IMG/VR virus record: IMGVR_UViG_3300033069_001247
Location: 1 to 64,000 of that record
Strand: one strand, 5' to 3'
DNA: 64,000 nucleotides
Source of the DNA: a virus
Lineage: Duplodnaviria; Caudoviricetes
The notes beneath the pieces are model-generated. The model searched no databases, was not told the origin of the DNA, and saw only the letters and a program-made list of their open reading frames with translations. Below are positions 4,641 to 45,855 of the stretch, one piece after another. How positions within the stretch are numbered: position 1 is the first letter of the stretch; each line of letters starts with the position of its first letter. The translations under genes were made by a program, and so were the position numbers.

Positions 4641-4654
4641 TCTCATGGAGGAGG
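4641..4654 (+). promoter_or_regulatory. RBS hairpin with CA-N-GGA-GG (CsrA/Rsm-like) element
   Basis: TCTC-ATGGAG-GAGG: 4-bp stem (one G-U) around an ANGGAN loop, just upstream of ATG 4659. Confidence 0.45.
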
Positions 4655-4658
4655 CGTC

Positions 4659-6674
4659 ATGGCTACAACGATCGCTGAAAAACTTGCATCGCAGCTGCTC
4701 TGTAAGTTGGATATTACGCAAAGCGATTTCGTTCGTGGCTTCCTGATGAAGTGTGCGTCTGTAGAATACAACGCAAGCGACACCGTCCGAGCCATCAACG
4801 ATGCAGTCAGTATCAGTCCGCACATCAGCCACGAGTTTGAGGTTTGCGGTTTCGAGAAGACGAGCAGTCGTTTGTTTGGGAGTGCTCCGAAGGCACCGGG
4901 AGCCCCGGCTGCTCCGATTAAAGCACCCGCAGCCGCTGCCGCCCCGGCGGCACCGTTCAAACCTGTGGGTTCGCTGTTCGGTAAAGGTCCACGACCGACC
5001 CCGCCAAAGATGCCAGCGACGTTTAACCCCGGCGGCGATAGCCCGTCGCCTTCAATGTTGGGTAGTGCTGCTCGTGGCTTGGGGCAGGGGGCCTTGAACG
5101 TGTTCAACGTACCTTGGGGTATGGCCAAGGGTGTAGCCGGTCGAACGCTGCAGGGTGTCGGTGCCGCCGCAAAACCGCTGGCATGGGCAACCGACACATT
5201 AGGCATCACACAGCACGCGACGCCAGCTGTGGGTGCATTTACAGACAGTCTGGCGGGTGATGCAGCGGCGGGTTTTGCAGACGTAGGTAAGGCCTTCAAC
5301 CCTGCTGAAGCTGCGTTGCCAGGTAGCCACAATACCGCCCGTGTACATCAGCATCAGCAAGAGATGCTCAGTCGCGGACAGAACTGGTCATCTGGTTTTA
5401 CCGGTGCTTTTGACAACGGCGGAAAGATGCTGACCAACATGCTACTTGGTGGCGGCGTTCTTGGTGCTGCAAGCAAGCTCGGACCTGTCAGTAACATGCT
5501 GCAGAAGGCGGCTCCGGTTATGGACAAAGTCGGACCGTTGCTGAATTATGGTGGACAGACGCTAGGGGCCGGGGCAGCGCAGTGGGCGGCACAGCCTGTC
5601 GCTGCCGAATCCGCAACGCCACCAGTCGCCACGCAAGAGAACCCGGTTGTAACCGATCAGCAACCTCCCGAGATGCAGCCCAGTGTGTCTGCCGCACCGG
5701 GAGCAGCCCCACCCGCTCCAACCGCACCGCCGCCGTCGCCAGAGGCACAACCTGCGGCAGCAGGCCAGCAACCGGCACCACAACCGGCGAGTCTGCTGAC
5801 GCAGACACCAGAGTACAAAGAAGTCAGTACGTTGGTGCAGAATGATCCAGAAACAGCGACGCAGCTCGGGCAGCAGGCCGTAGGGCAGATCAAGCAATCG
5901 CTGGACACTCCGGAAGGGGCCGCTGAACTAGGAGCATTGAAAAACACTGGGAAGCTCAGCCCTGACGGGCAACAAAAAGCCATGACGGCTTTGACCGAGA
6001 ACGGGTATGACTGGGACCATGCTCAAAATACCATCATGAACATGGATGGCTGGGAGCAGCTCGGCCTCTGGGGCGGGTTGTCATTGACGGCCTTGGGGCT
6101 CTTGCATGCATTGGGCGGCGAAGGCGGCGTAGGGTCACTACTGATTGGTATGCTGGGTCTTGGCGCGGCCGGATTTACGGCAGCCAAGACGGGCCTGCTC
6201 GATCAGGGTAGCCAGGACATGGCAAACAGCATGCAAACTGCTGTGATGGGTGAACCTTCAGCAGCTCCTCCAGCTACCCCTGCCGCACCTCCGGCTGCCG
6301 CCTCTGCCGGGGCACCCGGTATGATCGATCAGTTGAAGACGAAGGCGGTAGATACCTGGAACAATGCGAAGCCAAAATTACAGGCTGGTGCGTTCGAAGC
6401 GATCAAGCCACAGATTCCGTCAATGATCGACAAAATGCCAGATCAACCAGATCCGACTACGGCCAAAATGCTGTTGTCGCTTGTGCCGCCAGACGCCGCT
6501 GCGGAGTTAGACATGGCGATCGGGCACGGCGGAGCGGGCAATGCGATTGCGAGCTTCTTGGGCGACTTCGGAAATACCACACAGAAACGCATGACTGAAC
6601 GTCTGGGTACCACACCGGAGCAAAATGATAAGCTGCTCCGCCAGTGGGCCTACGCACGAAAGACTGGTCAATAA
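4659..6674 (+). CDS. Large Ala/Gly/Pro-rich protein with hydrophobic Gly-zipper segments (putative internal virion/ejection protein)
   Basis: 671 aa; N-terminal GFLMKCAS module and KxA motifs; Pro/Ala/Gln linker; WGGLSLTALGLLHALGG...LLIGMLGLGAAGFTAAK hydrophobic hairpin. Confidence 0.55.
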   Translation: MATTIAEKLASQLLCKLDITQSDFVRGFLMKCASVEYNASDTVRAINDAVSISPHISHEFEVCGFEKTSSRLFGSAPKAPGAPAAPIKAPAAAAAPAAPFKPVGSLFGKGPRPTPPKMPATFNPGGDSPSPSMLGSAARGLGQGALNVFNVPWGMAKGVAGRTLQGVGAAAKPLAWATDTLGITQHATPAVGAFTDSLAGDAAAGFADVGKAFNPAEAALPGSHNTARVHQHQQEMLSRGQNWSSGFTGAFDNGGKMLTNMLLGGGVLGAASKLGPVSNMLQKAAPVMDKVGPLLNYGGQTLGAGAAQWAAQPVAAESATPPVATQENPVVTDQQPPEMQPSVSAAPGAAPPAPTAPPPSPEAQPAAAGQQPAPQPASLLTQTPEYKEVSTLVQNDPETATQLGQQAVGQIKQSLDTPEGAAELGALKNTGKLSPDGQQKAMTALTENGYDWDHAQNTIMNMDGWEQLGLWGGLSLTALGLLHALGGEGGVGSLLIGMLGLGAAGFTAAKTGLLDQGSQDMANSMQTAVMGEPSAAPPATPAAPPAAASAGAPGMIDQLKTKAVDTWNNAKPKLQAGAFEAIKPQIPSMIDKMPDQPDPTTAKMLLSLVPPDAAAELDMAIGHGGAGNAIASFLGDFGNTTQKRMTERLGTTPEQNDKLLRQWAYARKTGQ

Positions 6675-6934
6675 CCTCAGTCTGTCTTAGAATGCGACCG
6701 CACCCTGTGACTGAGTCGTAACGCCGACTGGTTAGGGACCCCTGAAAACTATGGGATTGGTTGATGGGGTCGTGAGTGTCTTGCCAGATAAAATCGAACC
6801 GCAAGGCAATGGAGGTCAGATGGATGCGTTCTTGATGCCATCTACAAAGACTGTGAACACGGTCATTGGCGCCCGGCGATAGGGGATGCTGGGACGGTCA
6901 CAGGGTGTTTCAGCTTTCACAAGGATGTGACAAC

Positions 6935-7612
6935 ATGAAGCGTCGTATTTTGTTGATTTCAGCAGACAAGGCAGAACGCACGCTTGTCACGACGCAACTA
7001 CAGTCTCGCTTCCGTGCTCTCGACGTGTTTACCGCTGAGACATTGAACAAAGCCCATCAGACGTTCATCGAACACGGCTGCGACATCATACTCAGCAGCC
7101 TGCATCTACCTGATGGCGAGTCACCGCCGAACGTAGCGCATTCCCTGATGGCTATGGCACACTCGGTGCCTGTGATCGTACTTACGAAGCTGACGCATAC
7201 GGATGATGATGTGCTGGATGTCCTGACGATTGGTGTCCGTCACGTCCTCTTTTGTGAAGATCTGAAATCAGAGCCCGTCACGCTGATCAACGCCGTGATC
7301 GAAGGACTTCAGGAGGTGAATGCCCGAGAGGCGCAGTTCGCTGGTTTCGGTGAGCGGTTGCAGATGCTGTCGCAGAAGGTGTATGACGTAGACAACCGCA
7401 TGGCCACCACAGAAGGACTACTGAGCAAATTGACCACGAGCATCAACACATTGGTGGCCAGTATTGATCGACGCGGTGGACTGGAAGATCGCGTAGTTAA
7501 ACTGGAAAACACGCATGCTACTGCGATCAAGTTTGGGCTGTGGTTTGCAGGCATCTGCGGTACGGTGATTGCTGGGCTGATCGTGCATATGCTGGACATA
7601 TTCAAGAAGTGA
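6935..7612 (+). CDS. Pseudo-receiver domain + coiled coil + C-terminal transmembrane helix
   Basis: RRILLISAD...CDIILSSLHLPDG...VPVIVLT is CheY-like, with Ser where the phospho-acceptor Asp is expected; heptad region LQMLSQKVYDVDNRM...; TM FGLWFAGICGTVIAGLIVHML. Confidence 0.7.
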   Translation: MKRRILLISADKAERTLVTTQLQSRFRALDVFTAETLNKAHQTFIEHGCDIILSSLHLPDGESPPNVAHSLMAMAHSVPVIVLTKLTHTDDDVLDVLTIGVRHVLFCEDLKSEPVTLINAVIEGLQEVNAREAQFAGFGERLQMLSQKVYDVDNRMATTEGLLSKLTTSINTLVASIDRRGGLEDRVVKLENTHATAIKFGLWFAGICGTVIAGLIVHMLDIFKK

Positions 7613-7621
7613 TGGTGAGTA

Positions 7622-8497: not shown

Positions 8498-8506
8498 GGG
8501 TGAACT

Positions 8507-9730
8507 GTGGATGTCCTCGGCAGCCTTCAGCGATTGAGTGAACTGGCACCCTGGAAGCAGGTCCCAGAACTGGTACGCACACGATACAAGGAGGCGTCGG
8601 CAATCCAGCGGGACGTGACACGGCTGGTAAAAGCACTGCCCGCGATGGCGTCTGGTTACGGCCACGTCTACTGGAACCCCAAAGAGAAAAGCCTGTGGGG
8701 TGTTGTTGGTGACAGTGACGAAGTGCAGGATGTCCAGCGATTCGAGAATGCACTCAATGCTGTTCACGGGGTAGCCAATGTCCGTGTGGAGTCAGAACAC
8801 GGACCATTCGACGACCCGAACTGGATTCGGATCAAGCGATCGTCAGCGCTGTCGTGGCTCAACGAACCATATCGGGTGGCGGGCTCGTTGCTGAGTGGTC
8901 CGTCACCGTTGTCGAACTCGATCGTCTCGGGGTTACTGGGTAGCGGGGCAGGGTATACCGTTGGTACCGTGGCCGAGAATATGCTGCCTGAGCGATACGT
9001 TGAACGTGGTAAGTTACGTCGCAATCTGGCAATGTTGGGTGGTGCTGCTGGTGTGGCTGCTCACGTACCAGCCGCGATGGCAAACGCCCAGATGAACCGG
9101 AAAGCCACTGGTGACCCACACTGGCAGCGTTCGATTATGGGATCTGATGCCGATCAGCAGCTGGCCCCAAATGAGTCCGACTGGCAGAACCATTATCAGG
9201 CAGGTCATTTCAAACAATCGGTGGCTGCACGTTTGGAATTGGCGAAGAAACATTTGCCAATCCCTGCGGAGTCCACATTACGGATGATTGAAGAGTTCAC
9301 GAAGAAAGCCAGCGGGTACATGACGATGGATTCGGACGTACTGCGACCGGTACCTGTGGACGCATTCAACAATGCTATCTGGAACGACGTGCATAACGGT
9401 GTTCATTCATCACAGTCCAACCCTTACGGGACACGGAGCCCATACGGCGACAACAGCGAATCATTTCGGACACCTGCAATCAATGCGGCGGCAGCTGTTG
9501 GGTTGGTTACTGGTGTGCAGCAGATGTATGGCGGGTCGTCTGTCCTTTCGCCGAAGCACTTTGTCAAAGGACTGGCTGCCGCAGGTGTGGACGCCGCGAC
9601 CGCACATATCGCCGGGGGTGTACTCGGGGCTCTCGGCGGACTGACACCGGAAGCTCAGCAGCAGCTGCAGCAAATGGGGCTGTGGAGTGGTATGATTCGC
9701 GGCGTAACCAGTTCTGTTCTTGGGTTGTAG
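8507..9730 (+). CDS. Gly-zipper, KxA-containing hypothetical protein (putative internal virion protein)
   Basis: GTG start; SGLLGSGAGYTVG, MLGGAAGVAAH, GGVLGALGG segments; YKEAS, TKKAS motifs. Confidence 0.55.
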   Translation: MDVLGSLQRLSELAPWKQVPELVRTRYKEASAIQRDVTRLVKALPAMASGYGHVYWNPKEKSLWGVVGDSDEVQDVQRFENALNAVHGVANVRVESEHGPFDDPNWIRIKRSSALSWLNEPYRVAGSLLSGPSPLSNSIVSGLLGSGAGYTVGTVAENMLPERYVERGKLRRNLAMLGGAAGVAAHVPAAMANAQMNRKATGDPHWQRSIMGSDADQQLAPNESDWQNHYQAGHFKQSVAARLELAKKHLPIPAESTLRMIEEFTKKASGYMTMDSDVLRPVPVDAFNNAIWNDVHNGVHSSQSNPYGTRSPYGDNSESFRTPAINAAAAVGLVTGVQQMYGGSSVLSPKHFVKGLAAAGVDAATAHIAGGVLGALGGLTPEAQQQLQQMGLWSGMIRGVTSSVLGL

Positions 9731-9740
9731 CGAGGAAGCA

Positions 9741-10580: not shown

Positions 10581-10636
10581 TGTCGATAGCATAGGTCGGG
10601 CTTCAGCAGTGTTGCGATTACAAGGATGAACGCATC

Positions 10637-11032
10637 ATGGTTGATAAAGACCGCCCAATTGCAAAATTTATTGTGTCGCACGTACGCGTCAAATCCCCAA
10701 AGAAAAAGGTGGATTTTCGCGATCAAGTGGTGGCCTGGGGTACCAGTGCGATCGCAACGTTGGTGGCTTTTTCCTCTTCGCTCATCAAACTGATCAGCAG
10801 TATGCTGGATGCAATTGCTGATTACTTGTTACCGTACCTGCAACAGGTTCCGCGACAAGATCGACCGGCGTGGTTGGCAGTCGCAGCTTTTATCGGTATG
10901 GGGTTGATTGTACTGAACAAGCGACGGCTCTCTGGGCCGTACAACTTGCCTCCAGCTCAGCCGCCTGCCGGTACTCCCGTTCAACCGCCGCCACCAGCGG
11001 GTACGGCGGACACTTCGAAATCAGCATTTTGA
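10637..11032 (+). CDS. Two-TM membrane protein (holin-like candidate)
   Basis: Basic N-terminus, two hydrophobic stretches (WGTSAIATLVAFSSSLI; AWLAVAAFIGMGLIVLN), Pro-rich tail. Confidence 0.45.
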   Translation: MVDKDRPIAKFIVSHVRVKSPKKKVDFRDQVVAWGTSAIATLVAFSSSLIKLISSMLDAIADYLLPYLQQVPRQDRPAWLAVAAFIGMGLIVLNKRRLSGPYNLPPAQPPAGTPVQPPPPAGTADTSKSAF

Positions 11033-11042
11033 AAGGTGTGTC

Positions 11043-11531: not shown

Positions 11532-11571
11532 TCGTGCCAACAGCTTCGTGGTTTTGATGAGGGTGTAGATC

Positions 11572-11995: not shown

Positions 11996-12005
11996 ACAGG
12001 GAGGT
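11996..12005 (+). promoter_or_regulatory. RBS with ACAGGGAGGT (CsrA/Rsm consensus match)
   Basis: Exact A-C-A-N-G-G-A-N-G-T match 5 nt before ATG 12010. Confidence 0.45.
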
Positions 12006-12009
12006 TGAG

Positions 12010-12852
12010 ATGCCGTCGAACATTGGAAGTATGCCCGTCATTGATGACAACAACAGCCAGCAGTTCATCAATCCGATAATTGACGGGCATCAGCGGATGT
12101 GTTCGCTGATGCCTCGTGACATGATCAAGTACCCGCAAGGGGGCTGTGGATTCGCGGCCCTACGTCCGTTTAACACCTACACCAAGGCAGAACTGCTACA
12201 ACGCATCCGTGAAAAGGAAGCGGCCAAGTCGGGGCTCAAACACATCCTCGACGCTAAGGGTGTGCCTGTGAAAGATCAGGACGGTATCCCGTACTGCTGG
12301 ATCTACTCCACAGTCCACACTGTCGAGATCGCCTACGTCGTACAGGGTGACAACGAGGTTTACATTCCGTTGTCGGCGACGGCGGCTGGTACGATTATCA
12401 CCGGCGGGGTCAGCCGCGGCGGGTACGGCGCTGAGGCAATTGACTTCCTGTCCAAACACGGTGTCTGTCGAGAGATCGATTGGCCGGAACACCAGATCAA
12501 TCTGCGTCGGCGTACGCCACAAATTGACGCGATGGCGAAGAACAGCATCATCACCGACTGGGGTGAACTCCCCAGCGGTGACTTGAATCAGTTGGCAGCT
12601 GCCGTGCTGAACAACTTTCCTGTCACGATTGGTCTGCCGTGGTGGGGGCATCAGGTCACAATCATCGACCTGGTTATTCTGCCTGGCGACGTGATCGGAT
12701 TTGTGTTCAACAACAGCTGGGGGATGTCGTGGGGTGATCGTGGTCGTGGTATTCTGACCCCGAACAAGGCTCACGGCGATATGTTCTACCCGATTTCGGT
12801 ACGTCCTCGCTCCGAAGACGTACGCACACTTGGTCCTCTGATTGCGGCGTAA
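12010..12852 (+). CDS. Papain-like (C1A-type) cysteine protease
   Basis: KDQDGIPYCW (oxyanion Gln, catalytic Cys), WGHQVTII (His), FNNSWGMSWGDRG (Asn, NSWG). Confidence 0.88.
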   Translation: MPSNIGSMPVIDDNNSQQFINPIIDGHQRMCSLMPRDMIKYPQGGCGFAALRPFNTYTKAELLQRIREKEAAKSGLKHILDAKGVPVKDQDGIPYCWIYSTVHTVEIAYVVQGDNEVYIPLSATAAGTIITGGVSRGGYGAEAIDFLSKHGVCREIDWPEHQINLRRRTPQIDAMAKNSIITDWGELPSGDLNQLAAAVLNNFPVTIGLPWWGHQVTIIDLVILPGDVIGFVFNNSWGMSWGDRGRGILTPNKAHGDMFYPISVRPRSEDVRTLGPLIAA

Positions 12853-16033: not shown

Positions 16034-16088
16034 TCGCTGCCGTCGTTCTTCCGTTTCCGCCGCTCATTACACCCAGGGAGGGTTTGTC

Positions 16089-16301
16089 GTGGCAACTTAC
16101 AACGCAGACACTGCGGTCCGCGTGGCCGATCAGAGTTCCCAGTTTCGTGGCGGTCGCGGTGTCGTCAAGACCCGTGACGGGGACAAGCACTATGTTCGTC
16201 TGGAGGGGCACCCAAACAACAGCGTACAGCTGTTCCTGGGTACGCAACTGCAGACTGACGGACGCCCCGCCCGCGTGGATTACTCGCAAGCAGAGGCATA
16301 G
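16089..16301 (+). CDS. Small SH3/KOW-like beta protein (paralog B)
   Basis: GTG 16089 after CAGGGAGG; VRVADQSSQFRGGRGVV...VRLEGHP. Confidence 0.6.
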   Translation: MATYNADTAVRVADQSSQFRGGRGVVKTRDGDKHYVRLEGHPNNSVQLFLGTQLQTDGRPARVDYSQAEA

Positions 16302-29020: not shown

Positions 29021-29030
29021 ACATGGAGGT
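29021..29030 (+). promoter_or_regulatory. RBS with ACATGGAGGT (CsrA/Rsm consensus match)
   Basis: The same 10-mer occurs at 39707 and 41930; 7 nt before ATG 29038. Confidence 0.5.
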
Positions 29031-31986: not shown

Positions 31987-32982
31987 ATGTCGTTGTTGAC
32001 CTCCGCAAGTAACCCGTTCCGCCCGGCAGACTGGAGGTGGCAACGAGCCCAAGCGATTGCAGACAGGTCCCGGGACAGTATGCCACCATCACGACAACGT
32101 GATGGTGTGGAGAGCTTCAAGTGGATCACAACGGCTGTTCGTTTTCTGCGAGAGTTCAACAACGCCCGTACTGATGTCGCTAAAGAACTACTCTCTGTCC
32201 GTCGCCCCGGGATATTCTGGGCACACCACATCTGGACACAGACCAGCAACCCGCTGCGATACAGCATCGAAGCCCAGATCCTAGCCCGTTGTGATAATCA
32301 TCTCATCGGGTACAAATGCAATGTGCATCCGGATGTCATCGCCAACTACGAGGCTTTGTTCTTCAATGTCCGGGAGAAGTTGCAACACCGCAGTTACATC
32401 CTGAATGTCGTGATGGGGCCTGCCGTCCATCAGGGTTTGTCAGAACGGGACTACGGGTTGTTGTGGAAGCTGTACGGTTACTTCCTGGGACCGCACGTTG
32501 TTGATGCGCTGGAAGGAAAGTTCGTCAATCCGGTCTGGTGTAACTCTGCGGCAGGTGTCGGTGCCGCCATCATGGACGACTCAGTGGCAACGCTGAAGTT
32601 CAAAGCAGCCCTGGCCTCGAAGACAGTGCCCGTCAACCAATACACGCAGTTGCAGATCCTGGACGCATTCACAAAGTTCGTGGAGATCGAACGCAACACA
32701 GACAGCGCAGGCAAGGCGCAAGACCAGATTCTGGACCACATCTCGGCCATGATGACGACGCTGCCGTTCAGTGTCGGTGGTCGAGCTGCAGAAAAACTGG
32801 TACAACGTGATGTACAGCCGATTGAAGTTTTCGAACGTACTGCATTGGAACTGACGTTCGAAGAGACGCTTCGTATGTCGGCTTACCAGCCGATTGCTCA
32901 CAAGCAGATTCTGGAATCGCTACAGTTTCCCGCACTTCCAGCACCGACACTGTCGCCGACGCCACAGACCAGGGAGGGTTAG
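31987..32982 (+). CDS. Hypothetical protein, possible HTH-like region
   Basis: NPFRPADWRWQRA and IEAQILAR...VIANYEALFFNV segments; no clear function. Confidence 0.55.
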   Translation: MSLLTSASNPFRPADWRWQRAQAIADRSRDSMPPSRQRDGVESFKWITTAVRFLREFNNARTDVAKELLSVRRPGIFWAHHIWTQTSNPLRYSIEAQILARCDNHLIGYKCNVHPDVIANYEALFFNVREKLQHRSYILNVVMGPAVHQGLSERDYGLLWKLYGYFLGPHVVDALEGKFVNPVWCNSAAGVGAAIMDDSVATLKFKAALASKTVPVNQYTQLQILDAFTKFVEIERNTDSAGKAQDQILDHISAMMTTLPFSVGGRAAEKLVQRDVQPIEVFERTALELTFEETLRMSAYQPIAHKQILESLQFPALPAPTLSPTPQTREG

Positions 32983-32987: not shown

Positions 32988-34361
32988 ATGCCCAGTATCA
33001 CTCCAGCCACCGAGCAGCGGCTGTTGTCTGTCATTGAGAAGACTGCGGCGTTGGTGAACGAAGGACTTGCACCAAACGACGCGATTGTTAAAGCCGCATC
33101 GTCTGCCGATATCCGACCCACCGAGATCCCGTTGATTGTGCATGCGTACAACACCGGGGCCACCAATCGGCATCGGCAGGATAGCAACGACCCGTTTCAC
33201 AAAGCGGCGTCTTTCGAGTTGGCCGATTCAGAACGTATCCTGGAAGCGTTGTACCCGACAAACGTCAAGACGGCGGCAGTGATCGAACAGGAGACAGCTG
33301 TCTCTGACGAATACGCTCACAGTCCGTTACACCTTGTCGCCCGGCGGGACATGCAGCTCAAGTTGGCCGCCGCAAAGGTGGACTGGCGCAACTTCAATGG
33401 CGAAGAGATCAAAGCCCCTGCTCCGCTGCCTGTCGACGAAGGGTTTCGACAGAAGAAGGCATTTGATCAGCTGTCTCGGGCGTGTGACGCTGCTTCAGAG
33501 ACTCGTCGCAAGGTCGCGGCCGCGCAGATGCAGGCTGCCGACCTGTACGACAGCCTCCTGGGTTACTTCCGGCAGACAGACGCTTACCCGATGCACGTGG
33601 TGAAGGAAGCGGCGGTACTACTGCATGGTCGACCAGGTGAAGTGCTGTTCGATCAGATTGCCGCCACGATGCCGCAGCTCGTGAAACTGGCCAGCAGCAA
33701 TGTCGGGGCCAGCACGGTGACTGTGCATGATCTGGACTGCACGCAGCACCCATTCACGCTCATCAACAAGTTCCTGCAGAAAGTCGCAGAATACACTGAC
33801 CTGGTTGCACAGGATGCACAGTCGCAAGCTGCTTACGAAAAGCAAGCTGCGGAGACCCGCCACCCTTTTCCCGTGTCCGCGAGCCGATCGATCTTGGATA
33901 TCTCCAACTCGGCTGACTCGCGGACCAAGCAGGCAGAATTCGGTGACCCCGTGAAAATGTTGGGGGCCTACTCCATTATGAAGAACACGCTGGGTCCTGC
34001 TGTGCAGAAGCTAAAAGGTCCTGACGACGATACACGTCTGCAGCAGGCCGTTAGCCAGCTCAACGACCCACAGCACGAACTGAAGATGCGAGAGATCAAC
34101 ACGCACGCCATGCTGTCAGATCTGCTGACGAATGACCCGGTGGTGTCTGGCTACAGCAGCCCCGAGGTGATGGAAGCATTCAACCACATCTCGCAGCTTG
34201 CACCGTCGGTATCTGACAACCGCTTGATCATGCAAGGTGCTTTGCGAAAGTATCTGCAGCAAGGTGTGCTGGATCCATTCGACCAGAGCCAACTGCTTGA
34301 TTTTGAAACCCGTCGCCGCAACCAAACTCAACTCGGGGCTGGCCATGCCAATTACGCTTGA
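32988..34361 (+). CDS. KxA-rich helical head-module protein (putative core/internal protein)
   Basis: About 12 K-x-A motifs counted by eye in 457 aa (EKTAA, VKAAS, HKAAS, VKTAA, LKLAA, VKEAA, VKLAS, EKQAA...). Confidence 0.65.
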   Translation: MPSITPATEQRLLSVIEKTAALVNEGLAPNDAIVKAASSADIRPTEIPLIVHAYNTGATNRHRQDSNDPFHKAASFELADSERILEALYPTNVKTAAVIEQETAVSDEYAHSPLHLVARRDMQLKLAAAKVDWRNFNGEEIKAPAPLPVDEGFRQKKAFDQLSRACDAASETRRKVAAAQMQAADLYDSLLGYFRQTDAYPMHVVKEAAVLLHGRPGEVLFDQIAATMPQLVKLASSNVGASTVTVHDLDCTQHPFTLINKFLQKVAEYTDLVAQDAQSQAAYEKQAAETRHPFPVSASRSILDISNSADSRTKQAEFGDPVKMLGAYSIMKNTLGPAVQKLKGPDDDTRLQQAVSQLNDPQHELKMREINTHAMLSDLLTNDPVVSGYSSPEVMEAFNHISQLAPSVSDNRLIMQGALRKYLQQGVLDPFDQSQLLDFETRRRNQTQLGAGHANYA

Positions 34362-35460
34362 CCTTTCGCAGGTATCACTGGAGTCCGCTGCCAAGTTGCT
34401 GGAAATGCAACTTGGCATTTCTGGTATCCGGGCACGTCGCGAAAAGATGGCGATGAGTGCGGGTATGCAAGGTGCGTTGATTGGCGGTATTGGCGGGCTC
34501 GGAACCGGCCTGATGAGTTCGGCCCTGTCCACCGACGAGCGAAAGCGATGGCTGCGTAACGCCCTGGTCGGTACAGCTCTGGGTGCGGGCGTCGGCGGGG
34601 CTGTCGGGTACGGTTCTGACTTGGTGAAGCAGCTACAGAAACCGAGCCCGATTGAGGAAAACCTGAACAAGACAGAGGCAATACAAGCCCGGCAGGCAGC
34701 AGAATCGCAGCCGAATGATCCTATCCGTAACTGGCTCTACGGGAAACCAGCAGTACCCGCTCCGACGGCAGCACCCGCTCCGACGGCAGCACCCGCTCCG
34801 ACGGCAGCACCTACAGCGTCCGCTGGTCCTGCTAAGGTACCATCAGTTAGCGACCTGCAGCCGTCTAACGCTGAAGTCGGTAAAGAGCTGGTGAATCAAT
34901 ACACCGGCAGGCCATACGTAACAGGTGCTACGACTGCTACGGGCGTCGCGATAGGTCATGGCGCAGATAAATTGCGGCAGTACCGTATTACACCTTACGA
35001 CGTGTCCCATCCAGGTAAAGCGCGCTGGGAAGGTATGGTACCGGAAGAACAAGCAGCCGTTAAAGCATTTCAGACGCAAGCTAAGGCCGTACGTGCCGCC
35101 GGGGGTCGCGTCACGCAGCCATTTTTAGGTGGGGCTCCTACGTTCGTAACACCACCACCAAAACCGAACACAGCCAACCGCCGTATCGAATACAGACCCT
35201 CAGTTGCAGAGCAGGCGAGTGCGTTACCGCAACCAGCTCCATTGATCGCAAAGATGGTCAATAAAGCAAAGCAGACATTGAACCCACCAGGTACAGCCCG
35301 AACACAATTTTCACCGCAGACGTGGGATGAAGATATCGTTCCCGCTATGCGACAGAACATGCCGCGTAAGTGGGGCGGGAAGCTCACTGGCGGTGTACTT
35401 GGACTGGCGGCTGCCCCGCTTGCAGAAAGTATTTGGAGCGGTTGGAACGGAACCAACTAA
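34345..35460 (+). CDS. Gly-zipper protein with Pro/Ala/Thr linker
   Basis: EKMAMSA followed by GALIGGIGGLGTGLM and ALVGTALGAGVGGAVGYG; C-terminal LTGGVLGLAAAPLA. Confidence 0.6.
   Translation: MPITLDLSQVSLESAAKLLEMQLGISGIRARREKMAMSAGMQGALIGGIGGLGTGLMSSALSTDERKRWLRNALVGTALGAGVGGAVGYGSDLVKQLQKPSPIEENLNKTEAIQARQAAESQPNDPIRNWLYGKPAVPAPTAAPAPTAAPAPTAAPTASAGPAKVPSVSDLQPSNAEVGKELVNQYTGRPYVTGATTATGVAIGHGADKLRQYRITPYDVSHPGKARWEGMVPEEQAAVKAFQTQAKAVRAAGGRVTQPFLGGAPTFVTPPPKPNTANRRIEYRPSVAEQASALPQPAPLIAKMVNKAKQTLNPPGTARTQFSPQTWDEDIVPAMRQNMPRKWGGKLTGGVLGLAAAPLAESIWSGWNGTN
34755..34811 (+). repeat. 18-bp tandem repeat ACCCGCTCCGACGGCAGC x3
   Basis: Three perfect copies plus ACC; encodes (P)APTAA linker units. 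Confidence 0.9.
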
Positions 35461-35495
35461 GCCATTGTCAATTGCAGTCAGGGAGGCTGCGACAC

Positions 35496-37016
35496 ATGAG
35501 CATCATCAAGACAACTGCATCGTGGGGCGATAAGTTTGAAGGCCCTACCGCGCAGATCGTTGGGCTGTCCAGCAGAGGACTGATGGTCAACGATTACCGA
35601 CAGCTCGTGAAACGGGCCTCGGCAGATATCCTGCATGACATCCAGAGTATTCGGGAAAAGGTAGCGGCGGACGAAACGCTGATCCACCTTCTGGCTATTG
35701 GGGCCACTGAAGACTTTGGCTGTAACCGCAACGGTGACGGCTTCCGACGGGCCACGTGTCGGGCCTACCATCCCACATTCATGAAGCATGCGATGTTCTA
35801 TCGCAATCACGAAAACAAGGATCCCCGAAAGTCGTACGGGCGGCTCGTCAAGTCTGCCTGGAACAACGACATGAAACGGGTAGAGCTGCTGGTTGCGCTA
35901 AACAGCACCGCAGCAGCAGCTCACCGCAACAACGGACTGGTCGCTGATCGCGAGATGGAGAAACTCGCCAGCGGGAAAGACATCCCGGTCAGCATGGCGT
36001 GCAAGGTTCCGTACGACATTTGTTCGTACTGCGGCAATCAGGCCACGACCAGCGACGACTACTGTATGGGTACCTCCGAAGGCGGTATGTGTAAGGCAGG
36101 CGGGCTCAAGAACAACATCGGAGCATTGGTCGAAGTGGATGGCGGTGTGCATCAGCTGCATGCTGACAACGACCGACCATTGTTCTTTGATATTTCCAAC
36201 GTGTTTCGGCCCGCAGACCGTATCGCCTACACCACTGGTGCCCTGTTGAAGTCAGCCAGTGAACACGGTCGCGTAATCAAAAGTGCAGACCTGGCGCGAC
36301 AATTGGGAGTGGTCGTCCCGTTCGAACTGGCGATTGATAACGGGGAACAACCTGCCAACGTGCAGCGGATGCTGAAGATTGCGTACCAGCTGTCTCAGTT
36401 GGAAACAGACATTGAAAACGGTGCCCCGCCTGTTGCGGCAACGTATGCTCCGGCCTTCAAGCCATTGGTACAGGATGGCGACAAGGCCATGCATATTCCT
36501 GTCCCGACACATACGAAGTTCGCGATGGCAATGCGTGCCTTGGCAGATCAGAAGATTTGTTTACCGTTGGCCCGCTTTATCGAGCTGACGACCGACAATG
36601 ACTTTGAGAAGGCTGCAGAGATAGCAGCCGTCGTAGCACACAAGCTGCCGGGTGTGTTTACACGACTGCTATCTCGCAGCGACGTGGCAGAGCGGATTAA
36701 GACCAGCAACTACAACCCAGCTGATACCGAGGCATCGACCTTGTTTGCAGGCTGGGCATATAAGTTGGCGGCTTCAATGTCCCTGCATGCCGAGCATGTT
36801 CAACGTCGTGCAATTCGTGCGGCGTTGTATGACGAAACCGCTGTGCTACGCCGTGCGACACCGCACGAGAAAACAGCAGCATCACGTGATGCTGCGGGTC
36901 AACTGGTCGAAGAGTATGCTCTTTATCAGTTGTCCTTCCTTGGCTCTATCCCTGACGCTGACCCGTGTTCAGCGTTGACACGTTCCCTGTCCGTTGTTCA
37001 GAATTATGCAGCATAA
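35496..37016 (+). CDS. Prohead maturation protease (assemblin/HK97-like fold) with KxA-rich C-terminal extension
   Basis: YRNHENKD (His), RVELLV, PVSMACKV (Ser), CSYCGN zinc-like insert, FFDISNVFRPADRIA (cf. ExSxVxxPA); position upstream of scaffold and capsid genes. Confidence 0.8.
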   Translation: MSIIKTTASWGDKFEGPTAQIVGLSSRGLMVNDYRQLVKRASADILHDIQSIREKVAADETLIHLLAIGATEDFGCNRNGDGFRRATCRAYHPTFMKHAMFYRNHENKDPRKSYGRLVKSAWNNDMKRVELLVALNSTAAAAHRNNGLVADREMEKLASGKDIPVSMACKVPYDICSYCGNQATTSDDYCMGTSEGGMCKAGGLKNNIGALVEVDGGVHQLHADNDRPLFFDISNVFRPADRIAYTTGALLKSASEHGRVIKSADLARQLGVVVPFELAIDNGEQPANVQRMLKIAYQLSQLETDIENGAPPVAATYAPAFKPLVQDGDKAMHIPVPTHTKFAMAMRALADQKICLPLARFIELTTDNDFEKAAEIAAVVAHKLPGVFTRLLSRSDVAERIKTSNYNPADTEASTLFAGWAYKLAASMSLHAEHVQRRAIRAALYDETAVLRRATPHEKTAASRDAAGQLVEEYALYQLSFLGSIPDADPCSALTRSLSVVQNYAA

Positions 37017-37060
37017 AAATTCCGGACAGGGATTTCAGTTTGACAAAGGAGTTGTCGCAA

Positions 37061-38446
37061 ATGGGCAGTAAACCACAGGCGTCGTTTCTCACGGCCCTCA
37101 CTGAGCTGACCGCCACCATCGGACAGGCGAAGCAAGCAGCTGCAAATGGCGGACGCCAGAAAGCGGCTGGGGACCCTATTCCTGCTGACCCCGGCGGATA
37201 CTCTGGCAGCTCTTCGCACCCAACTGCCCACGTGGACAACCACGGGCAGAATGTGCAAGAGGGCGCACGTAGTGCCGAGAACGAGCGAGATGTCAAGGAA
37301 GATCAGGGTGCCCCAAGCGTGAATAACGCTTCGGACATGAAGCCTGGTATTCAGGATGATGTCCAGCTCAACATCGGAACCAAGCAGACCGCTACGGGTG
37401 AAGACCCTGCGGTCGAAGATGACTACAAGGGCGGAAAGGACGACCCCGGGTCGACCCACCCAGCCCGTACTGACAACAATGCACTGGATGGCGAAAAGTA
37501 CGCCAGTGCTACGATTGGTCAGTGCCGCGATTTCCACGGTGAACTCGCGAACTCGATCCTCGCTGACCTTGCTATGGGTCGGGGATCTCAGTTGGGAAAG
37601 CAGGCAGCAGCACAAGCTGCCCCCGCTAAGCCTGCGTCGGAACTGGACACCGCGATCAAGCAGGCAGCAGCTCGGGCGAAAGCCGGTGCCGCTGGCGCTG
37701 ATCACCCTGCCACTGGCAATGCCGATCTGCAGGCCGGTTATGATCTGGCTGCCGCGATCGGTATTGAGAAGCAGGCCGCTCAGTCTGCTGTTGCCGGTAT
37801 GATCGAAACCGCGATCACCGAAGCCCAGGAAGACGCAGACCGTTATGGTGCGTTCTTCACCGGCATCCTCAAGAAGGCTGCCGAAGCCGGGGCATCTGCT
37901 GAAGGTGAAGACCACAGCAGCGACGGCGATGACACCTCCGGAGCTAACGATGCCGAAGGGACCAGCGGTGGTTCCGGAGGCGGACCTGGCGGCGAGCACG
38001 TGAGTGCTGCTGGTGACCCTCCTCCTGGCAGTGATGCTGGCGGGCCTCCCGGTGCTGGCGGGCCTCCTGGTGGCGGCGGGGCTCCTGACGAAGCTGCACT
38101 GATGCAGCTGGTCGCCGCACTGGATGAAGCTGGTATCCCGATCGAAACGCTGATTCAGGCGCTGTCTGGTGGCGGCGGGCCTCCCGGCGCCGGTGGCCCT
38201 CCTGGTGCTGGCGGGCCTCCTCCAGCCGATCCGATGGGCGGCGGAATGGGTGGGCCTCCTCCAGCCGATCCGATGGGCGGCGGTGCCCCTCCAATGGGTG
38301 ACGGCATGAAGCTGGCTTCAGCGGTCAACCGGCTGCGTCGATCCGGTAAGTACCAGTTCAAGGTCGCGTACGCTGGTACCCCTGAGCGTGCTCTGCGGGA
38401 CCAGATGAAGAGCCACGTCGGCGAGATTCTCGGTCGCAAGATCTAG
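37061..38446 (+). CDS. Scaffold-like acidic/Gly-Pro-rich protein
   Basis: Between protease and capsid genes; about 10 KxA motifs; GGPPG and PPADPMGGG repeats; RBS in hairpin GACAA-AGGAG-TTGTC. Confidence 0.6.
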   Translation: MGSKPQASFLTALTELTATIGQAKQAAANGGRQKAAGDPIPADPGGYSGSSSHPTAHVDNHGQNVQEGARSAENERDVKEDQGAPSVNNASDMKPGIQDDVQLNIGTKQTATGEDPAVEDDYKGGKDDPGSTHPARTDNNALDGEKYASATIGQCRDFHGELANSILADLAMGRGSQLGKQAAAQAAPAKPASELDTAIKQAAARAKAGAAGADHPATGNADLQAGYDLAAAIGIEKQAAQSAVAGMIETAITEAQEDADRYGAFFTGILKKAAEAGASAEGEDHSSDGDDTSGANDAEGTSGGSGGGPGGEHVSAAGDPPPGSDAGGPPGAGGPPGGGGAPDEAALMQLVAALDEAGIPIETLIQALSGGGGPPGAGGPPGAGGPPPADPMGGGMGGPPPADPMGGGAPPMGDGMKLASAVNRLRRSGKYQFKVAYAGTPERALRDQMKSHVGEILGRKI

Positions 38447-38506
38447 TTCCGCCGGTTGTTTCCTTTCCCAAAATTAACCGCTGACTCTGTCACGGAGGAG
38501 TCTCTG

Positions 38507-38932
38507 ATGAAAACCCCGAATCTGGCAAACATGACGTTGCCGGAAAAGGTGATTGAGCAAATCACCCTGTCCAACGTTGCCTTGGAAAAGGCAGCCAGCA
38601 TCGAGCAACGTGCTGCTACCAAGCAGGCGTCGGTCGATGCGTTGATTCCGAAAGTTGTGGACGCCCTTGTCGACAACGATCGGATCCATCCGAACGAGCG
38701 CGAAAAGGCCGCTTCGATGCTGCGGGATCCTGTTCAGGCTCTCAATCTGCTGATGAGCTGTGCCCAGCATCACGTCGGCAACGACGGTGGTCGACTTGGC
38801 AGCCCGCTGCAGAAGGAAGCCGCTGCGAAGCCACAAGCACCTGCACGGTCTCCGTTCGTGGGTGTTCGCGGTCAGCACAGCGAAGCATCCGATCGACTGT
38901 TGGCCGGACTGGGTCTCCCAGTCAACTCGTAG
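38507..38932 (+). CDS. Small KxA-rich helical protein (scaffold/core-like)
   Basis: EKAAS x2, TKQAS, QKEAA in 141 aa; RBS TCACGGAGGA. Confidence 0.6.
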   Translation: MKTPNLANMTLPEKVIEQITLSNVALEKAASIEQRAATKQASVDALIPKVVDALVDNDRIHPNEREKAASMLRDPVQALNLLMSCAQHHVGNDGGRLGSPLQKEAAAKPQAPARSPFVGVRGQHSEASDRLLAGLGLPVNS

Positions 38933-39025
38933 TTCTGATCTGCAGCGACTTGTAGCAACCATGGTTGGTTGCTGTTCTTTCACGATGTACGCTCATTATG
39001 AGCGACTGAAATATGGAGGTTTCCC

Positions 39026-39607: not shown

Positions 39608-39706
39608 CAGCCTGACGCTTCTGCTTGTCACCATCGTTTGTCCCGGGGTGGTCTATGATGGCCACCCCTCTTTCGCACCATCACCGAGCAGGCGGATAAA
39701 CCTGCG

Positions 39707-39716
39707 ACATGGAGGT
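39707..39716 (+). promoter_or_regulatory. RBS with ACATGGAGGT (CsrA/Rsm consensus match) of major capsid gene
   Basis: Exact consensus match 5 nt before ATG 39722. Confidence 0.5.
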
Positions 39717-39721
39717 TACAA

Positions 39722-40654
39722 ATGGCTGCTTCGCAAGCCGAAACTGTGTTGCTGAACGAGACGCTGTTCGATCAGCTGCTCACTCCGGGTATGGAGAAGA
39801 AGGCTGTTGACGCTGTCAACGACTTCACCCGTACCAAGATGCGTGAAGACGGGTTCTTCCGTCGGATCATGCCACCGGTCAAGATTTCGAATGACGAACT
39901 CGATCGTCAGTCGGATACTCCCAAGCCGGTCAAGATCATCGACAAGGAACCAGACAGCCCTGCGGCTGTCTCGATCCCATTTGGTACGCTGCCCACCAGC
40001 GTGTACATCAAGGGTCCCAGGTACCGCGTGAGCTTCGACCGAATCGTGACCCCGCGGTTCCAGGTCGACGTGGAAGAGATGCGAACCTGGGTCATGGATA
40101 TTCGGCAAGTCCTTTCGGACAATGCACTTAAAGACGTTTTGGCAGAGGAAGACGGCAAGTTCATCGCGGGCTGTAACCAGCTCATGATCGGACCCGATGT
40201 TCCTGTGCCATACAACGGCAACCAGGTGCAGTGGAAGACGCTGGACGGCGGCCTGACTCGCGAGACTCTCCAAGAGGCTCGCAAGATCATGCCACGCGGT
40301 CCTTCGCATCTCGAGGCTCACACCGCCCTGATCAACAACGTCACCGTGAAGGAACTGGAGAAGTTCCCACGCGACGAAATGGGTGGTGACTTCAGCCAGG
40401 ACGTTCTCAAGAACGGATGGGCTGAAGCGAACTTCGCAGGCATGAACTGGATCATCAGTATCAAGCGCGACCTGATCCCTGACGACAGCATGTTCATGTT
40501 CTCGGACCCTCGGTTTATCGGGAAGGCGTTTCTTCTCGAAGACACCACAATGTACGTGAAACGCGAAGCGTTCATGATTGAGTTCTTCGCATACCAGACC
40601 ATGGGTGCGACGATCGGTCATCCTGGCGGCATCGCCCGGGCAGACTTCGCGTAA
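39722..40654 (+). CDS. Major capsid protein (HK97 fold)
   Basis: 310 aa; REDGFFRRIMPP, IVTPRFQVDVEEMR...DIRQVLSDNALKDVLAEEDGKF pattern; position after protease/scaffold/decoration genes; strong RBS; followed by a terminator. Confidence 0.8.
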   Translation: MAASQAETVLLNETLFDQLLTPGMEKKAVDAVNDFTRTKMREDGFFRRIMPPVKISNDELDRQSDTPKPVKIIDKEPDSPAAVSIPFGTLPTSVYIKGPRYRVSFDRIVTPRFQVDVEEMRTWVMDIRQVLSDNALKDVLAEEDGKFIAGCNQLMIGPDVPVPYNGNQVQWKTLDGGLTRETLQEARKIMPRGPSHLEAHTALINNVTVKELEKFPRDEMGGDFSQDVLKNGWAEANFAGMNWIISIKRDLIPDDSMFMFSDPRFIGKAFLLEDTTMYVKREAFMIEFFAYQTMGATIGHPGGIARADFA

Positions 40655-40677
40655 GTTGTACTTGCTTGAAGACTTCG

Positions 40678-40724
40678 CCTCTGGTAGGGTAGGGCTTGAC
40701 AGCTCTCCCTACCAGAGGATTTTT
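40678..40724 (+). terminator. Intrinsic terminator after major capsid gene
   Basis: CCTCTGGTAGGG...CCCTACCAGAGG 12-bp stem, inner AGGGC/GCTCT stem, TTGACA loop, then ATTTTT. Confidence 0.75.
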
Positions 40725-40726
40725 CG

Positions 40727-41428: not shown

Positions 41429-41487
41429 CCCGCTGTCGGATTCAAATACCATCTTCGATCGCAAGATCAGTTCTCATGGAGGCGAAC

Positions 41488-41871
41488 ATGCCGCAGCAAA
41501 TGCTCACAGCTCAGGAAGCTCACACCGTTTTCCACAACAAGGTGTACGCACCAGTCTTCTTCGAGAAGCTGGCCCAGGATTACAACATCCGACCCACCAG
41601 CGAAACAGAGGCGCAAGAGATGCTGGTGATGGCATCGCAGTTGCGATCGCTGCATGAAGCAGAAAACGAAAAGCGGGCTGCCAGCCGACCTGATCCAATG
41701 GCGATGGCCCGCAACATCCTCGACAACCAGCTGGCCCAGTATGGTTTCAGCAAGCAGGCTGGTACCGTACAGAACCAGAACCGCGTCAAGCAGTCCGCTG
41801 CTGCCGCGTCGTTTGACTCCGAACTGGCTCACGCCGCCCTGTCCGTGCTGGCACAGCACAACGCGGCGTAA
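41488..41871 (+). CDS. Small KxA-containing head-module protein
   Basis: EKLAQ, EKRAA, SKQAG; RBS TCATGGAGG. Confidence 0.6.
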   Translation: MPQQMLTAQEAHTVFHNKVYAPVFFEKLAQDYNIRPTSETEAQEMLVMASQLRSLHEAENEKRAASRPDPMAMARNILDNQLAQYGFSKQAGTVQNQNRVKQSAAAASFDSELAHAALSVLAQHNAA

Positions 41872-41944
41872 CCCCATTCGCGACACACGCAACCGCAGTT
41901 CCTGATCGAGATACTCGTGGTACTCAGCCACATGGAGGTTCAAA

Positions 41945-42307
41945 GTGCCTGTTAACCCATCTGCTGAAGAACTCTACACGACCGTAGAGAATATGACCGA
42001 CTCCGAGCGGACCTGTGGGTTCCTCGGGCCTCGCGGAATGACCCTGGCGCCCGGTGAGATCGTTCTCATTCCGGGTAACCTTGTTGCGACTCTGGGTGCC
42101 GAAGCGGCTCGCGGCAAGCGACGCCGGTTCGATGGACTGGAGCGTTCGATGAAGGCGGGCCGCATCCGCATCAACAGTACGCCTGCTCCTGTACTGTACG
42201 ACGCGGAAGATGGCGTACCCAAGTCGCTGGCGATTGCTGGCGGTGTCCTGGGTACCGTGGATCCCGACTACAACGAACACGGATCAGTCGCGTACACCCC
42301 GGTTTAA
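41945..42307 (+). CDS. Hypothetical virion-associated protein
   Basis: GTG start after ACATGGAGGT (41930); ends before a terminator. Confidence 0.6.
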   Translation: MPVNPSAEELYTTVENMTDSERTCGFLGPRGMTLAPGEIVLIPGNLVATLGAEAARGKRRRFDGLERSMKAGRIRINSTPAPVLYDAEDGVPKSLAIAGGVLGTVDPDYNEHGSVAYTPV

Positions 42308-42339
42308 CCACCGTCGCCGTACGATCCTGCTTGTTCATG

Positions 42340-42372
42340 CGGCGATCCGAAACTTTCGGGTCGCCGTTTCTA
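42340..42372 (+). terminator. Intrinsic terminator
   Basis: CGGCGATCCGAA-ACT-TTCGGGTCGCCG followed by TTTC. Confidence 0.7.
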
Positions 42373-42397
42373 TTTACCGCGATAACCGGATACCGCT

Positions 42398-43438: not shown

Positions 43439-43451
43439 CAGGGAGGCTATC

Positions 43452-43652
43452 ATGCGTTCTGTGCAAGTTCAGTTCTGTACCGAGCGTGCTTCGGCGAAGT
43501 CATTTCGGTTCCCGCTGCAGACGATCAGGGCGGCAGTCACGGATCTGCGATCACAGGTCCACAGAGCATTGAAAAACTGCTACATCGGTTTCGGCCCCGG
43601 TCACAAGGTCCGAACCCGTCAGCTGGGAGTCCAGGGGCATGCCTCAGAGTGA
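43452..43652 (+). CDS. Small hypothetical protein
   Basis: ATG 43452 preceded by ACAGGGAGG; 66 aa. Confidence 0.45.
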   Translation: MRSVQVQFCTERASAKSFRFPLQTIRAAVTDLRSQVHRALKNCYIGFGPGHKVRTRQLGVQGHASE

Positions 43653-44904: not shown

Positions 44905-44955
44905 GCAGGGTTGCTCATCTGACCCGTGCCCCATATCCTATTTACGAGGTCGAGC

Positions 44956-45144
44956 ATGTCCGACAACCCGCGCAGTACGCAGCAACGCCAGACACACAAG
45001 GCGTTTTATCCGACGTTGTCGATGCGTGACTATCGACCTGATGAGCAGCAAGTCATGGAAGCACTTGGGAAGGCTCCGATAACGCAAGGAGGCGTCAGTG
45101 ACCACCACGCCGGACTGTCCGCAAGGACCCGAAAACCCGGATGA
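44956..45144 (+). CDS. Small hypothetical protein
   Basis: ATG after GAGG; overlaps the next gene by 47 nt. Confidence 0.3.
   Translation: MSDNPRSTQQRQTHKAFYPTLSMRDYRPDEQQVMEALGKAPITQGGVSDHHAGLSARTRKPG
45082..45095 (+). promoter_or_regulatory. RBS hairpin ACGC-AAGGAG-GCGT
   Basis: Perfect 4-bp stem with ANGGAN hexaloop upstream of GTG 45098. Confidence 0.5.
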
Positions 45145-45820
45145 CGTGGAAGCTCTCTTTCCAGAGGGCTCAAATCCTGGTGTACGCTTCGGTAAGTTAT
45201 CAGCAGTATGTGCCTATGGGTTGACCCAGCTTGTCTGTACGGGTGCCCTACGTCATTTCCTCATCCAACACTTCTCTGACATTCGGAACATCCTGAACGC
45301 CACGTTGCGAGAGCGACTGAAACGAGAGGGTGTTTGGAGTTCGGATCGTAACGAACGCACGGGAATCGTCATTGAGTCCCTGCATCGTTGGACCCCTGAA
45401 CTCACTGAATCGCGACCAGCCATTATCATCAAAGAAGGTACATGGAACTGGGAGCGGAAAGGGATCGGTGACTCGACCGGTGTGGAGCAGCGTACAGGTA
45501 CGCGGCACTTCAGCGGTTTCTGGAACGGATCTCACGTATTTTTTGCCCTCGCACAAGAGGCGGCAGAAGCACAGCAGATTGGGACCGAAACCCTGAAATG
45601 TCTCCAGTGGTTCAGTCAGGAAATTTCTGAGCAACTGAACATGCACCGCTTTATCCCCGTCAGCATCGGGGAAGTCGCAGCCCTTCAAGAATCGAGCGAG
45701 CATTACGTCGTTCCCGTGGTCTTTGGATACACGATTGAAGACTCCTGGAAGCTGCAGCCGGAAGCACCACGCCTGAAACGGATCGTGCTCTCCACCAAAG
45801 ACGTACTCGCCGGTTACTGA
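45098..45820 (+). CDS. Tail terminator/completion-like protein
   Basis: 240 aa directly upstream of the sheath gene; PAIIIKEG...FFALAQEAAEAQQIG pattern. Confidence 0.5.
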   Translation: MTTTPDCPQGPENPDDVEALFPEGSNPGVRFGKLSAVCAYGLTQLVCTGALRHFLIQHFSDIRNILNATLRERLKREGVWSSDRNERTGIVIESLHRWTPELTESRPAIIIKEGTWNWERKGIGDSTGVEQRTGTRHFSGFWNGSHVFFALAQEAAEAQQIGTETLKCLQWFSQEISEQLNMHRFIPVSIGEVAALQESSEHYVVPVVFGYTIEDSWKLQPEAPRLKRIVLSTKDVLAGY

Positions 45821-45855
45821 ACCATTCCACTCATCGTCCGTACCCAGGGAGGGTC

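Follow-up and report, generated by a model that had tools for sequence, protein, structure and literature searches.

In the Rsm and Csr systems of Pseudomonas and Escherichia coli, repression of hcnA by RsmE and of glgC, cstA and pgaA by CsrA involves a GGA motif placed in a short stem-loop over the Shine-Dalgarno sequence (PDB 2jpp family). The RsmE/CsrA consensus is given by PMC6849547, citing Schubert et al. 2007, as A/U-CANGGANG-U/A. Elements with the same central eight bases, a C:G-closed ANGGAN hexaloop and paired flanks are found in the phage contig IMGVR_UViG_3300033069_001247, an 86,809-bp linear IMG/VR virus record with a CheckV completeness of ~43%, the first 64 kb of which form the stretch analyzed here (the window). 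These CA-N-GGA-N-G elements overlap the Shine-Dalgarno sequences of a set of phage genes and, judged from sequence, are probably CsrA/RsmE-type RNA operators. Unlike in the RsmE/CsrA systems, the targets are the phage's own genes, the regulator is probably phage-encoded, and the outer flank pair may be any Watson-Crick pair, not A/U alone.

A second parallel is the CsrA-FliW-Hag system of Bacillus subtilis, in which CsrA covers the Shine-Dalgarno sequence of flagellin, the structural subunit made in greatest abundance. The phage counterpart is a predicted operator at the capsid gene, present in 11/11 genomes, that is, the contig and ten close relatives. This likeness suggests dosage control tied to assembly. 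Unlike in Bacillus, however, no FliW homologue is found in five relatives, and assembly feedback in the phage is an analogy only.

Phage proteins from other families also act at ribosome sites. T4 RegA and the coat proteins of MS2 and Q-beta block the ribosome sites of their own mRNAs through a short RNA element. Neither their protein families nor their RNA motifs are related to those described here; RegA acts at unstructured, AU-rich sites, and MS2 has just one operator site. The start-associated sequences of Cluster K mycobacteriophages are a short element common to the starts of a subset of genes. In the present clade, unlike in Cluster K, the loop equals the consensus of a known protein, and that protein is encoded in the clade. 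Jumbo phages of this type use polymerases of their own for transcription, and little is known about how they regulate their genes post-transcriptionally.

Work published in 2020-2021 catalogued csrA and rsmA alleles in temperate Pseudomonas and Vibrio phages and proposed host genes, for example CRISPR-Cas, as their targets (Sobrero and Valverde 2020, PMC7366521; Campa et al. 2021, PMC8450108). Examples of csrA-carrying phages in GenBank are Pseudomonas and Vibrio phages of 40-64 kb. They share with the present clade a gene of the canonical CsrA family; unlike in them, the jumbo-phage genome itself bears a predicted operator set. Literature searches returned no report of a phage with a CsrA operator set on the ribosome sites of its own virion genes. 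If the proposed reading is true, CsrA regulates the translation of late phage genes, and a well-understood RNA-binding module has gained a new use, in which a bacterial global regulator has been repurposed to time or dose virion protein synthesis. It would offer a testable model of jumbo-phage post-transcriptional control, consisting of defined 20-nt RNAs and a 60-aa protein, together with a natural set of variants for the study of CsrA site recognition, as the 139 sites cover each possible loop N and all types of stem pair.

A covarying stem-loop over the Shine-Dalgarno sequence

According to our own coding-potential gene calls, the plus strand holds 85/86 genes of the contig. Gene starts were heuristic calls favouring Shine-Dalgarno matches; neither the CA prefix nor pairing was used in calling. 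A prior inspection of the letters and open reading frames (the sequence-only reading) had listed CANGGAGG at 13 positions. All 13 are present on the plus strand, which is the coding strand, 5-10 nt upstream of start codons, and three further copies (8587, 60944 and 61321) bring the window to 16, with zero on the minus strand. The sites overlap the Shine-Dalgarno sequence, ending 5-10 nt before the starts of genes supported by coding potential. Over the 86.8-kb contig, C(-3)A(-2) precedes 13 of the 21 GGAGG ribosome sites (binomial p = 9.5e-10), against a background of 8.3% for CA before GGA within coding sequence. A whole-window shuffle test of CANGGAGG (16 seen vs 10.2 expected) was rejected as the wrong null: with GGAGG itself depleted in the window (85 seen vs 125 expected), it makes the signal look weaker than it is. 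The longer repeats that had been pointed out are also real: ACATGGAGGT is identical at 29021, 39707 and 41930, with a fourth copy at 60943, and ACCCAGGGAGGGT occurs at 16071 and 45842.

The bases flanking the element are paired far beyond expectation. Pairing was counted in 141 ribosome-site CANGGANG sites from the 11 genomes, with the expectation taken from permuted flanks. Positions -4 and +5 pair in 76.6% of these sites (37.8% expected), at least two outward pairs form in 51.8% (15.1% expected), and at least three in 29.8% (5.8% expected). NGGAGG ribosome sites without CA pair in 35.9% of cases against 34.4% expected, that is, not above expectation. In the contig, at least one extra flank pair beyond C:G is present at 13/16 ribosome-site CANGGANG sites (38% expected, p=5e-4) and at least two at 8/16 (15% expected, p=1e-3). 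These counts support the suggestion that many sites fold with ANGGAN in a hexaloop, and the two hairpins given as examples, ACGC-AAGGAG-GCGT at 45082 and GACAA-AGGAG-TTGTC at 37042, are as described. Hairpins with GGA in any loop, counted over all ribosome sites, show no enrichment (43% vs 41.5% shuffled); the signal is therefore specific to the CANGGANG hexaloop register.

Covariation was measured by independent pair-counting on a gap-free alignment (A1) of 139 of the sites. The score was 0.403, compared with 0.151 +/- 0.015 in 500 shuffles (0/500 as high) and 0.09-0.20 for slid partners. All four Watson-Crick types occur at the first variable pair (AU 32, UA 25, GC 23, CG 21). At the second, G.U is as frequent as expected and A.C is depleted (19 vs 6), which fits pairing in sense-strand RNA. 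The loop and its closing pair are constrained in sequence as well. Among hexaloop-register hairpins of 3 bp, with CA not preselected, C:G closes 56% of those at ribosome sites and 26% of those in coding sequence, and the loop begins with A in 70% vs 23%. Where position 7 is not G, position 8 is G at 51% of CA sites vs 31% of non-CA sites (p=4e-4). The element is stem / C-[A-N-G-G-A-N]-G / stem, matching the RsmE/CsrA consensus. The upstream CA and the closing pairs, which the sequence-only reading had taken for information beyond a plain Shine-Dalgarno sequence, are indeed such: the prefix is part of a covarying stem-loop, and non-CA sites are unpaired.

These constraints bear on two simpler accounts of the prefix. 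It is barely conceivable that CA extends the Shine-Dalgarno/anti-Shine-Dalgarno complement or reflects a general bias of host ribosome sites. Every site does overlap a functional-looking Shine-Dalgarno sequence at normal spacing, and A(-2) could pair with the usual 16S tail (CCUCCUUA/UUUCU). However, C(-3) and the free N(-1) are no complement to this near-universal tail, and the covariation of the prefix with the 3' flank is inexplicable by rRNA pairing. Moreover, only a subset of genes (5-10%) carries the prefix, and it is common to relatives of 46-63% GC but not to the sister (far) clade. Host bias, which had been named as one finding that would undo the proposal, is thus disfavoured.

The other account takes CA-N-G for a small late promoter or initiator element read by a multisubunit RNA polymerase belonging to the phage, overlapping the Shine-Dalgarno sequence and giving very short late leaders. 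Known late promoters of jumbo phages are similarly short, being 4-nt motifs at or near the start site, such as T(-3)ATG(+1) in phiKZ and A(-11)ACA-N6-U-A/G(+1) in AR9 (PMC7598289), and there are no other conserved bases between -30 and -5 in the present sites. A promoter is nevertheless highly improbable. The covarying stem has its left arm on the upstream side of CA, with G.U tolerated and A.C depleted, and a paired RNA arm in that place means that transcripts must start upstream of the motif. Furthermore, the motif keeps its place relative to GGA and the start codon, not relative to intergenic positions, several sites lying in upstream coding sequence, and the eighth-position G and the hexaloop register would have no role in a promoter.

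Conservation in relatives and association with csrA

Capsid relatives in IMG/VR split into two groups: a close clade with a capsid identity of 53-81%, contigs up to 226 kb and a GC content of 46-63%, and a far clade with a capsid identity of about 30%. Full records were fetched for ten close-clade and two far-clade members, and sites were also compared in 20-kb capsid neighbourhoods. In the neighbourhoods of the close clade, C(-3) is found at 58% and A(-2) at 56% of GGAGG ribosome sites, compared with 31% and 40% in the far clade, where the CA pair is at chance level. No promoter-like conservation is seen between -30 and -5 in these neighbourhoods. Over full genomes, CANGGAGG accounts for 20-33% of GGAGG ribosome sites in 9/10 close-clade genomes and for 12% in the tenth (G005), while its share in the two far-clade genomes is 4% and 0%.

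The element is also retained gene by gene. The capsid-gene ribosome site is CA-N-GGAGG in all 11 close-clade genomes, with T, C or A as N and with unrelated flanks; far-clade capsid genes lack it. At gene 29038, the orthologues have CAAGGACG, CACGGACG or CACGGAAG, such that the Shine-Dalgarno core varies while CANGGANG is retained. Those of gene 38507-38932 carry CATGGAGG with 3 pairs, those of gene 41945-42307 carry CACGGAGG, CAGGGATG or CACGGAAG, and the sheath gene orthologues in G002, G007 and G012 carry CATGGAGG or CACGGAGG. Orthologues of gene 37061 keep a stem with an AGGAG loop through compensatory changes (TGTCA/TGACA, GCCA/TGGC, GAGA/TCTC, GCA/TGC). At gene 48894-49331, orthologues in G001, G008 and G012 have CANGGAGG in hexaloop hairpins whose stems reach as many as 6 further pairs.

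A candidate regulator is encoded by most of the close relatives. Pfam CsrA (PF02599) matches above cut-off (50-81 bits vs a 27-bit cut-off) in 7/10 of them (G001, G002, G003, G004, G008, G012 and G013), with two csrA copies each in G002 and G004. Three fragments of about 40-50% completeness gave no csrA match. One relative's CsrA aligns with chains of E. coli CsrA (E about 3e-13, roughly half of the residues identical), identity to the E. coli protein is about 50% for the clade's CsrA proteins, and solved CsrA/RsmE chains in the PDB match the relatives' proteins at E about 1e-13. Across 9 CsrA sequences from the relatives, there is no variation at the positions corresponding to E. coli R6, R31, the A-P pair and R44. 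By sequence, these proteins are canonical CsrA. Several of the csrA genes have CANGGANG or an AAGGAG-loop hairpin at their own ribosome site, which fits the autoregulation known for bacterial CsrA. The csrA genes often lie on the minority strand (L038, L039, L040, L045, L047) in genomes in which about 95% of genes share one strand.

Two other relatives, G005 and G010, give divergent C-terminal CsrA-like matches. Their proteins (L042 and L048, respectively) are 127 aa long, and only the C-terminal strands, following an N-terminal extension, are CsrA-like (13-20 bits). Both genomes have few hexaloop ribosome sites and retain the capsid site in a shifted heptaloop register.

Motif density and canonical csrA go together among the genomes. 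The far clade lacks both: csrA matches were found in 0/14 far-clade records, including one that is 95% and one that is 80% complete. In the seven genomes with canonical csrA, CANGGANG ribosome sites are found at 5-10% of genes, compared with 0.8-2.5% in the four genomes with a divergent CsrA-like gene or none; the contrast in site density (107/1413 vs 15/827, p about 1e-9) represents at most two independent evolutionary contrasts, which weakens the csrA-motif link. Gene order in the contig is collinear with that of G001, the nearest complete relative, whose csrA is about 3.5 kb past the point matching the contig's right end. From this collinearity, the csrA of the contig phage would lie about 3.5 kb beyond the right end. 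A search for the missing part by the exact-end pattern in viral and metagenome contigs, and one with the G001 CsrA as query in metagenome contigs, returned nothing.

A proposed Csr circuit and its alternatives

In the proposed mechanism, the C of the element would pair in the mRNA with the eighth-position G (the last G of GGAGG), and one to three flanking pairs would extend the stem, so that the A-N-G-G-A-N hexaloop is presented directly over the Shine-Dalgarno sequence. The most likely ligand of the predicted loops is a dimer of the CsrA family, which would thereby control access of the 30S subunit. The dimer is probably the phage's own, encoded just past the end of the incomplete contig, although a host CsrA is possible. 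Control is probably repression, setting the timing or dosage of the capsid protein, its upstream neighbour, the sheath and about a dozen other genes.

Several observations count against this mechanism. The 86.8-kb contig, itself incomplete (about 43%), has no csrA or CsrA-like frame, and G007 (78% complete) has sites without a csrA match. The csrA-carrying Vibrio phage 431E45.1 is without hairpin sites at its own ribosome sites, and thus csrA alone predicts no self-regulon and the operator set is a property of the jumbo-phage clade. Single hairpins are weak (-3 to -10 kcal/mol) and thermodynamically marginal, and most taken alone are no better than shuffles; the fold of the whole capsid leader is also not better than shuffles. 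No flank pair in the hexaloop register is found at 4/15 window CANGGANG sites (3 of the 16 at called contig ribosome sites, plus that at 43439). The weight of the structural evidence comes from covariation across sites and genomes, not from single folds.

Further points of this kind concern features of characterised Csr systems. Unlike in RsmE/CsrA systems, multi-site leaders are not enriched: a second GGA or ANGGA within about 50 nt is not commoner than at other ribosome sites. The dimer-bridged two-site leader is a classical CsrA feature, common in characterised targets and not strictly needed for binding. Some capsid leaders have an upstream GGA, which in the contig lies about 15 nt upstream of the site. 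Rfam families, including the Csr/Rsm sponges, gave no match in the window, in all of G002 or in part of G003, and a de novo search for ANGGA-dense noncoding windows gave no clear sponge. As FliW is also absent in the five relatives examined, no antagonist is known. A search of the full phage genome for csrA or sponge RNAs had been suggested as a check; csrA was located in the seven close relatives and not on the contig, and no sponge RNA was found.

Two noncoding stretches in relatives have three to four CANGGA in 200 nt, one in G013 (about 51,540-51,720, plus strand) and one in G012 (about 174,930-175,170, minus strand coordinates). One of the two is a leader with a Shine-Dalgarno sequence at its end. 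Multi-site CsrA leaders and small sponge RNAs are both possible readings of these stretches.

The main alternative accepts the hairpins but not CsrA as their ligand. They might act in cis only, through Shine-Dalgarno accessibility or mRNA stability, or be bound by another phage or host RNA-binding protein or nuclease. Covariation proves the structure and not the binding partner, and the absence of csrA from the contig and G007 fits this view, as does the failure to find second-site enrichment or an antagonist. It is nevertheless unlikely. A purely structural element needs no C:G closing pair and no A at loop position 1, both of which are strongly preferred; the loop and closing pair equal the independently derived RsmE/CsrA consensus base for base; and site density follows the presence of canonical csrA among genomes. 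Identification of the elements as CsrA operators is supported by every computational test able to refute it, and we infer CsrA as the ligand.

For the clade as a whole, the balance tips slightly towards a broader proposal. In it, an uncultured clade of ~150-230-kb jumbo phages would run a private Csr circuit, in which a phage CsrA, probably autoregulated, acts on hexaloop operators of the capsid, capsid-neighbour, sheath and about 10-20 other mRNAs, timing or dosing virion proteins independently of the host.

Genes carrying the element

The sites are concentrated where the genome is rich in virion genes, which is the part represented on the contig. Of 82 sites in five relatives, 33 belong to genes with a contig homologue, although such genes make up 18% of the total (odds ratio 3.4, p about 9e-7). 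The set in the window comprises the capsid gene, the capsid upstream neighbour's orthologues, the sheath gene and several genes of unknown function between 29 and 49 kb. Gene 39722-40654 has a weak match to a major head protein and gene 45856-48777 one to a tail sheath. Besides these two, PHROGs and Pfam recognise among the site-bearing genes only a papain-like protease and a weak receiver domain; many others are unknowns. The frames 17664-24281 and 25914-28949 and most genes after 49 kb are without the element. The motif, the stem and the csrA genes of the relatives support the earlier proposal of translational control by a CsrA-family protein, but its restriction to structural genes does not hold, as the targets are not purely structural.

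Sites in the window and other features of the contig

The ribosome sites and their hairpins are listed in Table 1. The CAAGGATG site at 6920 fits CANGGANG yet has no GGAGG Shine-Dalgarno sequence. At 35479, a strong alternative 8-bp hairpin with an AGGGA loop is predicted (-10.2 kcal/mol, z -3.2).

Table 1. Predicted hairpin elements at ribosome sites of the window, with flank pairs counted in the hexaloop register beyond C:G.
Element	Position	Strand	Flank pairs	Downstream gene and remarks
CATGGAGG site	4644..4651	+	3	7 nt before ATG of gene 4659-6674 (671 aa, no family match)
CAAGGATG site	6920..6927	+	3 (TCA/TGA)	6935-7612 (weak receiver-domain match)
CAAGGATG site	10621..10628	+	none	10637-11032
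CAGGGAGG site	11997..12004	+	2	12010-12852 (papain-like Cys protease); minimum-energy fold is the hexaloop
CAGGGAGG site	16074..16081	+	1	16089-16301 (small gene)
CATGGAGG site	29022..29029	+	3	29038-31515 (825 aa)
CAGGGAGG site	32970..32977	+	3	32988-34361; minimum-energy fold is the hexaloop
CAGGGAGG site	35479..35486	+	none	35496-37016
Pentaloop variant GACAA-AGGAG-TTGTC	37042..37056	+		37061-38446
CACGGAGG site	38491..38498	+	1	38507-38932
CATGGAGG site	39708..39715	+	2	6 nt before ATG of major capsid protein gene 39722-40654
CATGGAGG site	41475..41482	+	none	41488-41871
CATGGAGG site	41931..41938	+	1	41945-42307
CAGGGAGG site, weak member	43439..43446	+	none	6 nt before ATG of a 66-aa open reading frame ending 43652
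CAAGGAGG site in ACGC-AAGGAG-GCGT	45085..45092	+	3	45098-45820; minimum-energy fold is the hexaloop
CAGGGAGG site	45845..45852	+	1	45856/45859-48777 (tail sheath)
Pentaloop variant TCAC-AGGAG-GTGA	48876..48888	+		48894-49331

Three copies of the motif lie away from starts. A perfect 5-bp hexaloop hairpin, GCGAC-AUGGAG-GUCGC (-7.9 kcal/mol, z -2.2), occurs at 60939-60956 within gene 60507-61313 with no start codon downstream, and may be an internal CsrA-type site or chance. The CAAGGAGG copies at 8587-8594 and 61321-61328 are within coding sequence, without flank pairing or a usable downstream start, and are probably not operators.

Megablast of the record against GenBank phages gave no match, and a tRNA scan of the window found none. 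Assignment of a host through capsid relatives in bacterial assemblies was attempted and rejected. The ten matches fell in metagenome-assembled genomes (MAGs) of eight unrelated lineages and in two unclassified bins, a spread that indicates mis-binning, and hence no host was called. The clade contigs concerned (L166-L175) are placed in MAGs of Nanopelagicales, Nannocystaceae, Phycisphaerae, Gemmataceae, Zixiibacteriota, Methylococcales, Bdellovibrionales and Saccharibacteria. This placement is likely binning contamination, unsuitable for host calls.

In-frame tandem repeats of 18 nt and 39 nt are present at 34750-34811 and 38035-38293, in genes 34396-35460 and 37061-38446, respectively. Their CCTCC runs are GGAGG on the minus strand, which accounts for a cluster of minus-strand GGAGG. 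A GC-rich hairpin followed by a T-rich run is found at 39640-39676, about 50-80 nt upstream of the capsid start. It is terminator-like, and the capsid gene may therefore have its own short leader.

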